Positions 27,248-27,471 of a stretch of 64,000 nucleotides of DNA are shown here, piece after piece. Every line of letters starts with the position of its first letter. Position 1 is the stretch's first letter. The notes beneath the pieces are model-generated. The model searched no databases. It saw only the letters and a program-made list of their open reading frames with translations, and was not told the DNA's origin. A program made the translations under genes and the position numbers. The DNA comes from a virus (lineage: Duplodnaviria; Heunggongvirae; Uroviricota; Caudoviricetes): the IMG/VR virus record IMGVR_UViG_2585427757_000006; one strand, given 5' to 3'.

Positions 27248-27249
27248 GG

Positions 27250-27399
27250 CCGTTGTGGTGGCCGGTACTGAATCTCCGGCATACGGTGCAGCCAATTAGG
27301 ACTACGGACGATCACCGCTCGCGAAAGGGAAGATTTGCGGCCGCATTTCCCTAACATCCAAGAAAGCTATCGCATCAGTCTGCGAATCCACCACAACGG
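27250..27399. other. unassigned ~220-bp structured spacer inside the tRNA cluster, closed by a 12-bp inverted repeat (CCGTTGTGGTGG / CCACCACAACGG)
   Basis: Arms at 27250-27261 and 27388-27399; internal palindromes (GCGGCCGC, GGGAA..TTCCC); no canonical tRNA fold found by eye. Confidence 0.5.
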
Positions 27400-27471
27400 T
27401 AAGATCACTACCTTTCGACCAGTCATTGTGCACATGAACGACGATTAACCGTAATGATCTTATCGTTGTAT

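Follow-up and report, generated by a model that had tools for sequence, protein, structure and literature searches.

What occupies the long gap between two tRNA genes of a P1-like phage-plasmid? The window considered here is the whole 64,000-nucleotide stretch of DNA analysed from the IMG/VR virus record IMGVR_UViG_2585427757_000006, a P1-like phage-plasmid whose region of interest is 99% identical over 1.4 kb to Escherichia phage CMS-2020a, with phages Cyrano, P7 and D6 found as further relatives of the region by sequence search. It carries four tRNA genes predicted by ARAGORN, all on the minus strand, and between tRNA-Thr and tRNA-Ser lies a spacer of 224 nt (27248-27471) that a first-pass annotation had described as a single structured element closed by a 12 bp stem, perhaps a small RNA analogous to those of the T4 tRNA region or a highly divergent tRNA. 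We find that the spacer is composed of two structured small-RNA modules, A and B (Table 1), in an operon with the order Asn-Tyr-Thr-[A-B]-Ser, and that its functional strand is the minus strand, as it is for the tRNAs. Module A belongs by sequence to the family of the lambda small RNA LPR2, and module B appears to be distantly related to STnc100 and PasD, two small RNAs of prophages.

Two structured RNA modules in the spacer

The annotated segment corresponds exactly to the spacer between the two tRNA genes, for which ARAGORN gives boundaries at 27247 and 27472. No cloverleaf is recognised within it by ARAGORN or by the Rfam tRNA models RF00005 and RF01852, and Rfam searches returned zero families in the spacer, either at gathering scores or, over a 1.4-kb stretch, at E ≤ 10. 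Three open reading frames of 56-95 codons overlap the spacer (27187-27357 and 27302-27589 on the minus strand, 27073-27354 on the plus strand), but all of them overlap tRNA genes and none is credible; that the spacer is kept, lost or swapped among close relatives also argues against coding. The initial impression that the segment holds neither a tRNA nor a plausible coding frame is therefore correct, and the idea of a highly divergent tRNA can be set aside; module B is tRNA-like by topology alone.

Folded as minus-strand RNA, the spacer is predicted to form a 5' hairpin followed by a multibranched domain under the 12 bp stem, with an energy of -76.5 kcal/mol (z = -2.3, with 5 of 200 shuffles equal or better), and the plus-strand fold is weaker (z = -1.65). 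This predicted folding energy is by itself modestly unusual, and it is the pairing and compensatory changes seen in relatives, not energy alone, that mark the spacer as more than chance. The 12 bp stem is real, with CCGUUGUGGUGG at 27388-27399 pairing with CCACCACAACGG at 27250-27261, but it closes just 150 of the 224 nt, which constitute module B; the remaining ~70 nt form a separate hairpin, module A. Rather than one element under one stem there are thus two modules, with a GUUGUG strand common to both. The palindromes noted earlier are present as described, one being GCGGCCGC within GGGAA...UUCCC at 27327-27351 and the other CCGGCC..GGCCGG at the Ser-proximal end.

Module B has a closing stem (P1), a 5' hairpin (P2), a variable centre and a 3' hairpin (P3). 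From the matches in viral contigs we extracted 147 distinct B modules, and those of ≤150 nt include 74 different centres. The family 5' frame reads (GUU)GUGGUG-AAU-GCGCA-GGCUGA-UGCGC and the 3' frame AA-GCCGG-AGAUCAGCA-CCGGC-CACCAC(AAC), with 12 to about 170 nt of centre between the two. P1 has an invariant core of 7 bp (UGUGGUG/CACCACA), and its outer pairs covary, appearing as GUUGUG/CACAAC, GAUGUG/CACAUC or GGUGUG/CACACC. Since the 3' arm of module A and the 5' strand of P1 share (GUU)GUG, the basal pairs of A (ACAACG/CGUUGU) and the outer pairs of P1 are mutually exclusive.

The pairing of P1, P2 and P3, and of the P2 loop with the P3 loop, was tested in a MAFFT alignment of 74 sequences (alignment A1). 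Standard pairs fill 94.1% of cells, as against 24-55% in slid controls, and changes on both sides are found in 18 of the 24 pairs, compared with 4.4 in shuffles; none of the observed values is attained in 500 shuffles. P2 (helix 2) is 97.8% paired and has double changes in 5/5 of its pairs. The loop of P2 (GCUGA) is the complement of that of P3 (UCAGC) in 99% of cells, and at the covarying position of this contact the pairs are G-C 56 times, G-U 13 times and A-U 3 times. The window has a compensated variant of the same contact, with UCAGU in the P3 loop matched to ACUGA in the P2 loop. G.U pairs greatly exceed A.C mismatches, which shows that selection for the structure acts on the sense strand and hence on the RNA.

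A covariance model built from A1 (R1, whose short calibration makes its E-values rough) scores module B of the window at 72.7 bits (E ~9e-16, 27252-27397), the window sequence being an R1 seed. In an R1-fitted alignment of matches from a genome set (alignment A2), 94.5% of cells are paired, a percentage that leans high, and there are 127 double-change cells as against 33 in shuffles (0/500). The covariance analysis of 74 and 81 related sequences thus gives 94% of cells paired and plentiful compensatory changes. For module A we assembled 85 distinct hairpins from upstream of B copies, and, as these were chosen for at least 15 of 17 pairs, their paired fraction is biased; their apices are hypervariable, and stem positions 5-17 have 8-28 double changes each. 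We conclude that the spacer holds two sense-strand RNA structures under purifying selection, inside a tRNA operon.

Two side observations concern module B. The self-complementary GCGGCCGC forms the tip of the central hairpin (window 27339-27346) and is kept in the Klebsiella Jedunavirus BUCT_49532 (locus L008, ~3066-3073) despite a differing stem; judged from this sequence, the palindromic loop could be a dimerisation site. A weak R1 match elsewhere in the window, at 18239-18361 on the plus strand (14.8 bits, E 0.26), is probably noise.

Relatives among phages, prophages and plasmids

The kinship of B with STnc100 and PasD is out of reach of the Rfam model for these RNAs (RF02076), and it is weak matches of R1 and RF02076 in both directions that link the two. 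Within a 12-kb stretch of phage 933W the top R1 match is STnc100, although it is weak (18.8 bits, E 0.0016, rough calibration); this is a genuine STnc100, scoring 207.7 bits on RF02076 and located in the late operon, where it lies 75 nt past stx2B and has three tRNA genes upstream of it. In the other direction, D6 and P7 have a second, diverged B-like module 3' of tRNA-Ser and before tciA (L002 3792-3916 and L003 3797-3916, both on the minus strand), to which R1 gives 28.4 bits and 24.4 bits respectively and which neither record annotates. The D6 copy scores 39.6 bits on RF02076 over model positions 31-147, below the gathering score of 47.

The STnc100 consensus, caUGGUG-AAU-hairpin-centre-CCGGG-AGGCA-CCCGG-CACCAug, has in common with B the 7-bp closing stem (UGGUG...CACCA), the AAU joiner, a 5-bp 5' hairpin with a 6-nt loop, a central region, and a 5-bp 3' hairpin abutting the closing stem. 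The niches are also common to both, namely the late region near Q, stx and holin genes, and positions beside tRNA genes. In contrast, the loops of B differ and are mutually complementary (GCUGA/UCAGC), and the centre is unrelated. Module B of the window, which sits between module A and tRNA-Ser, is without the 5' extension of STnc100 (model 1-30) and without a terminator corresponding to 148-206, and the B family ranges far beyond the Enterobacteriaceae, unlike STnc100 and PasD of Salmonella, enterohaemorrhagic Escherichia coli (EHEC) and enteropathogenic E. coli (EPEC). PasD is an abundant Hfq-bound RNA of EPEC, and it is reported to be a structural homologue of STnc100, both being small RNAs encoded by prophages near Q and the holin operon, with different seeds and targets and with functions unsolved (doi 10.64898/2026.05.13.724894). 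A survey of small-RNA families likewise assigned no function to STnc100 (PMC9029176).

Module A of the window, with an inner hairpin at 27400-27462 (fold -28.6 kcal/mol), is identical at 61 of 80 positions (76%) to the copy in Klebsiella phage SCNJ1-C and at 54 of 82 (66%) to the LPR2 region of lambda; a BLAST search with the spacer gave 79% identity over 99 nt (E 8e-13), and a query with the A+B pair of phage IME10 matches lambda at 97.6% over 85 nt. The lambda A-type hairpin (44784-44868) opens the late mRNA, directly past tR', and the stem that comes next, GUUGUGCUG...CAGCACAAC, represents a variant of B in which P1 is compensated. The probe used on northern blots to detect LPR2 (P844, AGCACTGGCTAACCAGGCTCGCCGACTCTTCACGA) is the reverse complement of this hairpin. 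LPR2 belongs to the late operon, is ~63 nt long and bound by Hfq, is present mainly in the lytic cycle and was proposed as a sponge for PreS (Silverman et al., doi 10.1101/2024.10.31.621285). By our count the lambda hairpin minus its CACAACA/GUUGUG base is exactly 63 nt, and this match in size suggests cleavage at the conserved CACAAC/GUUGUG junction, which may mark an excision point. Both RNAs are long bulged hairpins with a CACAAC...GUUGUG base and a GUUGUG-led stem directly after, and AAGAGCA/UGCUCUU in the lambda stem is replaced in the window by the compensated AAGAUCA/UGAUCUU. Module A differs from LPR2 in its apex, and in lying within a tRNA operon after tRNA-Thr, not after tR'. The proposal of a small RNA among the phage tRNA genes is supported in this respect, with two structured modules and a lambda relative of one of them detected on northern blots.

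Several features of A-type hairpins deserve mention in their own right. A T-arm-like GGUUCGAAUCC (GTTCRANTC) is found just before the 3' arm of the stem in 10 of the 85 A hairpins, examples being D6 (L002, ~4495-4575, minus strand) and loci L004, L015, L019, L042, L121 and L173; such apices may be decayed tRNAs or deliberate T-arm mimics. Many A hairpins have UGCUCUUU in the 3' arm (lambda 44850-44868), where the window has UGAUCUUA (27392-27411). We take UGCUCUUU to be identical to the boxA core of rrn operons and lambdoid phages (the NusB/NusE site), but the stretch is base-paired, covaries as a stem and is altered in the window, and the resemblance is probably a coincidence. The annotated lambda orf-64 (44621-44815) starts inside the 6S RNA, crosses tR' and ends in the LPR2/A hairpin, and is probably spurious as a gene.

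Pieces of B match unrelated phages, including the Klebsiella Jedunavirus BUCT_49532 (75% identical to the window in the centre), temperate Klebsiella phages, the P22-like IME10 and an N4-like phage. Degenerate patterns for the 5' core and for the 3' part each match at least 120 IMG/VR contigs, and in a scan of one genome per species the 5' core was found in at least 120 species of bacteria, the greater part of them Gamma- and Betaproteobacteria. The matches listed include Enterobacterales, Aeromonas, Pseudomonas, Halomonadaceae, Moraxellaceae and Xanthomonadales, together with many Burkholderiales, Gallionella, Thauera, a few Alphaproteobacteria and some oddly labelled metagenome-assembled genomes. 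Over the first 80 loci of this independent genome set R1 gives 81 matches at E ≤ 0.001, and about 76 of them are full-length (53-89 bits), showing that the 3' frame is present there too. There is no RefSeq annotation over any B copy examined, no Rfam match over the B copies at 12 other loci, and a literature search with the conserved frame sequences returned nothing relevant. B defines a family with a conserved three-way junction, complementary loops and an exchangeable centre, spread over proteobacterial phages, prophages and P1-like plasmids, that has escaped Rfam capture and RefSeq annotation. STnc100, PasD and LPR2, which are abundant, Hfq-bound small RNAs of phages and prophages with functions unsolved, are now tied to a much larger family, and a B covariance model would annotate hundreds of unassigned intergenic stretches.

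Where tRNA genes occur near B they are almost always on the same strand (26 versus 0 modules in viral contigs, 14 versus 2 in genomes), and a downstream tRNA, when present, often begins 7-9 nt past the B stem. For most B modules, nevertheless, the nearest 600 nt are free of tRNA genes; this holds for 121 of the 147 modules from viral contigs and for 99 of 113 from genomes. Terminator-like sites lie downstream of 40 of the 147 modules, compared with 7 in the control, and promoter-like sites, read by eye, are seen just upstream of some copies. In lambdoid and P22-like phages the A+B pair is positioned between Q/tR' and the holin gene, and in an O157:H7 prophage it is in an early leader, ahead of two terminators.

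Close relatives of the window differ greatly in the spacer. The Thr-to-Ser gap is 8 nt in Cyrano, 224 in the window, 446 in P7, 465 in D6 and 490 in a second CMS-2020a, and the longer spacers are strings of hairpin-like units with stem ends CACAAC and GUUGUG; in Klebsiella P1-like relatives an Asn-to-Ser gap of 146-147 nt is found. The best PLSDB hits fall into three identity bands, with 59 records at ≥99%, 51 at 95-99% and 67 at 90-95%, and among the matches listed the first band covers all 224 nt, the second just 160 nt on the 3' side and the third just 97 nt on the 5' side. The existence of plasmids with A+B, with B alone or with A alone shows that the spacer is two separable modules. The centre type of the window is present in 141 of 5426 complete E. 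coli genomes, in every case on P1-like plasmids and never annotated. In Cyrano (locus L001, 4181-4428) the order is Asn-Thr-Ser with gaps of 2 and 8 nt, without spacer modules and without tRNA-Tyr. The tRNAs and the RNA modules of the operon come and go as separate cassettes, and the wider distribution suggests that A- and B-type modules travel with phage tRNA genes as interchangeable units.

Some B loci have unusual neighbours or contents. In BUCT_49532 (L008, 2363-3157) and at locus L140, B is directly 3' of a free-standing HNH endonuclease gene in the tail-gene region, with a terminator after it, and in these two cases B may have moved with the homing endonuclease. At locus L121 (1953-1999, minus strand) the B centre is a 16S rRNA-like segment, AGCUAGAUGGUGGGGUAAUGGCUCACCAUGGCGACGA, scoring 36.7 bits (E 8.5e-7) with the Rfam SSU rRNA model; we presume that it corresponds to 16S rRNA helix 11, and locus L105 has a centre of the same type. 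Ahead of A+B, a temperate phage of Klebsiella, an N4-like phage and a prophage of E. coli (L009 ~2830-2995, L010 ~2665-2830 and L013 ~2740-2915) share a third stretch of conserved non-coding sequence, GATAGTTTTCG...GGCGGCGTAA...GATTAATAATGGGCR, and this may be another RNA module.

Possible function and alternative explanations

The most likely interpretation, and one that we hold to be somewhat probable, is that A and B are phage regulatory small RNAs that are cut from the tRNA transcript by tRNA-processing nucleases and act in trans. The action in trans is suggested by LPR2, PasD and STnc100, and the excision steps by the established course of tRNA processing in E. coli. A minus-strand precursor would carry A and B within the tRNA operon; RNase P cleavage at position +1 of tRNA-Ser would generate the 3' end of B, RNase E together with exonuclease trimming past the CCA of tRNA-Thr would generate the 5' side of A, and a cut at the CACAAC/GUUGUG junction would part A from B. 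The freed modules would then act in trans during lytic growth, with the conserved frame supplying a scaffold that resists nucleases and the variable centre or apex conferring specificity, working by base pairing or as a sponge, modes of action that have been proposed for LPR2, PasD and STnc100.

Several observations weigh against this interpretation. Cyrano lives without the spacer, which is therefore dispensable, and a P1vir transcriptome paper makes no mention of the region. Module B of the window has no terminator or U-tail of its own, features that Hfq-dependent small RNAs usually need, and RF02076 gives no match in 26900-28300 even at E ≤ 10. A BLAST search of 5,426 complete E. coli genomes with the window centre found no chromosomal similarity at E ≤ 1, which led us to reject a host target or host mimicry for this centre, and no chromosomal complementarity at BLAST sensitivity. 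The 5' frame is near-identical across Gamma- and Betaproteobacteria, beyond what a passive scaffold would need, and hints at a specific partner. Finally, the retrieval patterns used to assemble the sequence sets fix part of the B frame, and the pairing percentages of A2, an alignment fitted to R1, lean high.

Alternatively, A and B could be cis-acting processing or stability elements that part the tRNAs from one another and shield them, or do so for the late mRNA of lambdoid phages, with the 16-20 bp stems of A-type hairpins as RNase III-type sites and B as a leader that positions RNase P on tRNA-Ser. Such a role would fit the three A-type hairpins that punctuate the operon (27985-28106, 27392-27470 and 27081-27158), the constant distance of 7-9 nt between B and a downstream tRNA, the position of the lambda hairpin directly past tR', and the conserved CACAAC/GUUGUG located exactly at module borders, where a cut agrees with the 63 nt of LPR2. 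However, the large majority of B modules are not near a tRNA, some resemble stand-alone genes with a promoter-like site or a terminator, and Cyrano has its Thr and Ser genes 8 nt apart with no module between them. Moreover, LPR2, PasD and STnc100 accumulate as discrete RNAs, LPR2 and PasD being Hfq-bound with partners found by RIL-seq, in which interacting RNAs are ligated and sequenced, and we view a solely cis-acting role as unlikely. The same asymmetry of G.U over A.C that identifies the sense strand, taken with the internal covariation, leads us to reject a DNA-level mobile or recombination cassette, resembling a miniature inverted-repeat transposable element (MITE) or an integron attC site, with CACAAC/GTTGTG inverted repeats as its bounds and no RNA function. 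Near-identical plasmids do have the modules present, absent or replaced, the modules shuffle independently, B adjoins an HNH endonuclease gene in BUCT_49532, and CACAAC/GTTGTG is loosely like integron core sites (RYYYAAC/GTTRRRY). But terminal repeats do not explain compensatory changes deep in stems or the loop-loop complementarity, the modules invariably point the same way as the local transcription unit and its tRNAs, the lambda member has been detected as an RNA, and no transposase or integrase is consistently close by; a purely DNA-level element is accordingly very improbable.

The shape of B raises a different idea, that of a putative tRNA-shaped mimic or decoy whose frame would provide a surface for some conserved factor of the host or of its defences, for example RNase P, an enzyme that modifies tRNAs, an anticodon nuclease or part of the ribosome, while the centre would display further mimics. 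The topology runs parallel to that of a tRNA, with P1 of 7 bp, a joiner of 3 nt, a hairpin on the 5' side, a central domain and a 3' hairpin stacked on P1, and the predicted loop-loop contact is where the D and T loops of a tRNA meet. The frame hardly varies from one bacterial class to another, B shows linkage to same-strand tRNA genes, and there are host-RNA-like pieces in the 16S-like segment of L121 and the GTTCRANTC of 10 of the 85 A apices. On the other hand, no 3' CCA or RCCA follows P1, the P2 and P3 loops are unlike D and T loops, no tRNA or YrlA model matches, and the host-RNA-like inserts are a minority that could be neutral acquisitions. We therefore judge a mimic or decoy improbable. 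A related and similarly doubtful proposal, which we would call quite unlikely, is that the B frame, kept nearly unchanged in phages of Gamma- and Betaproteobacteria, is no passive scaffold but a tRNA-shaped device. It would dock on something that all hosts have (RNase P, the ribosome, an enzyme of tRNA handling or of defence, or the like) and carry the centre, and likewise the A apex, as cargo; if true, such a device, with cargo such as the 16S rRNA-like segment or T-arms, would be a general phage platform for RNA mimicry or decoys. The simplest reading of the position inside a tRNA cluster and of overlapping frames of 56-95 codons, that a decayed or strongly diverged tRNA, or else a small protein-coding gene, fills the spacer, is scarcely credible, as ARAGORN and the Rfam tRNA models are blank, the frames overlap tRNA genes, and relatives show large indels and replacements of the centre yet keep the stems.

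The B family offers a clean system in which to study the role that an RNA scaffold, itself conserved but holding a variable insert, plays in infection, and its P1-like phage-plasmid carriers are clinically relevant because some of them bear resistance genes.

Comparison with other phage RNAs separates analogy from homology. T4 species 1 and 2 (rnaC and rnaD) are stable RNAs co-transcribed with tRNAs and released by tRNA-processing enzymes; like the window modules they are small RNAs beside phage tRNAs, and their function is unsolved. The T4 parallel drawn in the first-pass annotation stands as analogy only, as R1, a model of module B, gives ≤4 bits over T4 70.6-72.7 kb, which spans the tRNA/rnaC/rnaD region; rnaC also ends in a genuine T-arm, which the window modules are without. 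ROOL and GOLLD RNAs, of ~600-800 nt and of unsolved function, are likewise non-coding RNAs of phages and prophages often found beside tRNA genes, but they are much larger than A and B and unrelated in sequence, and their Rfam families have no match in the spacer (gathering scores, E ≤ 10). Kissing-loop contacts are described in ROOL and GOLLD (10.1101/2024.12.08.627333).

The put RNA of HK022, which acts on RNA polymerase just downstream of early promoters to bring about RNA-based processive antitermination, was rejected as an identity. It consists of two stem-loops in a V shape, ~70 nt in all and with no closing stem (PMC9378689), an architecture that differs from that of the modules, and HK022 is without the A and B cores. 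Put and some B copies are alike in being structured RNA in operon leaders upstream of terminators, such B copies lying between a promoter-like site and tandem terminators, whereas B of the window precedes the final terminator of the operon, where put-like read-through would be purposeless. R1 has a weak match in HK022 (L202, 33581-33692, plus strand; 17.9 bits, E 0.042), away from the position expected for put near the immunity region; the HK022 record carries no annotation of the put sites. The phi80 M3 RNA is a classic non-tRNA substrate of RNase P; the phi80 record gives M3 as an oop homologue near cII, phi80 is without the A and B cores, and this candidate was also discarded. Matches to YrlA and Y RNA-like models are only weak and all lie over real tRNAs. 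The CUGAUG at the P2 loop recalls a hammerhead, but the remaining core is missing and no ribozyme model matches.

The tRNA operon and its flanking elements

The features of the locus are collected in Table 1. The CCA encoded by tRNA-Thr stops 2 nt short of module A. The general Rfam tRNA model misses tRNA-Ser(UGA), a class II tRNA, to which the tRNA-Sec model gives 46.6 bits (threshold 47), and the D6 record remarks on an equal difficulty in annotating this gene.

Table 1. Features of the tRNA and small-RNA operon, with window coordinates
Feature	Position	Strand	Basis
A-type hairpin CACAACGUUGAGGCCA...UGGCCUCAACGUUGUG, operon leader upstream of tRNA-Asn	27985-28106	-	sequence reading
tRNA-Asn	27644-27718	-	ARAGORN
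tRNA-Tyr	27552-27638	-	ARAGORN
tRNA-Thr(UGU), adjoins spacer on 5' side of transcript	27472-27547	-	ARAGORN; Rfam tRNA 76.5 bits
Module A, LPR2-type hairpin UACAACG-AUAAGAUCAUUAC ... GUAGUGAUCUUAC-CGUUGUG, variable apex	27392-27470	-	fold, similarity, family
Module B, whole STnc100/PasD-like three-way-junction RNA	27250-27399	-	model R1 and structure counts
B P1 5' strand CCGUUGUGGUGG; family core 7 bp UGUGGUG	27388-27399	-	fold, alignment
B P2 hairpin UCGCA-GACUGA-UGCGA; loop 27375-27380 complementary to P3 loop	27370-27385	-	fold, covariation
B hypervariable centre, including hairpin GGGAA-AUGCGGCCGCAAAUC-UUCCC at 27327-27351	27281-27369	-	74 centre types
B P3 hairpin GCCGG-AGAUUCAGUA-CCGGC, abuts P1 3' strand	27261-27280	-	covariation (helices 3-6)
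B P1 3' strand CACCACAACGG; ends a few nt before tRNA-Ser 5' end	27250-27260	-	fold, constant tRNA spacing in relatives
tRNA-Ser(UGA), adjoins spacer on 3' side	27161-27247	-	ARAGORN
A-type hairpin CACAGCGUUGAGCGGUUUGG...CCAGACCGCUCAACGCUGUG, ~20-bp stem, between tRNA-Ser and terminator	27081-27158	-	sequence reading
Intrinsic terminator closing the tRNA/small-RNA unit	26987-27006	-	terminator scan and sequence

The terminator that closes the unit also serves, in the opposite direction, the convergent open reading frame 26074-26982. The two further A-type hairpins, one in the operon leader and one after tRNA-Ser, are of the type CACA(A/G)CGUUGAG...CUCAACG(U/C)UGUG. Matches of microRNA models over the one after tRNA-Ser are symmetric across both strands, a sign of a long hairpin, and, as read from the sequence, the perfect stems of 16-20 bp in both hairpins look like RNase III substrates.

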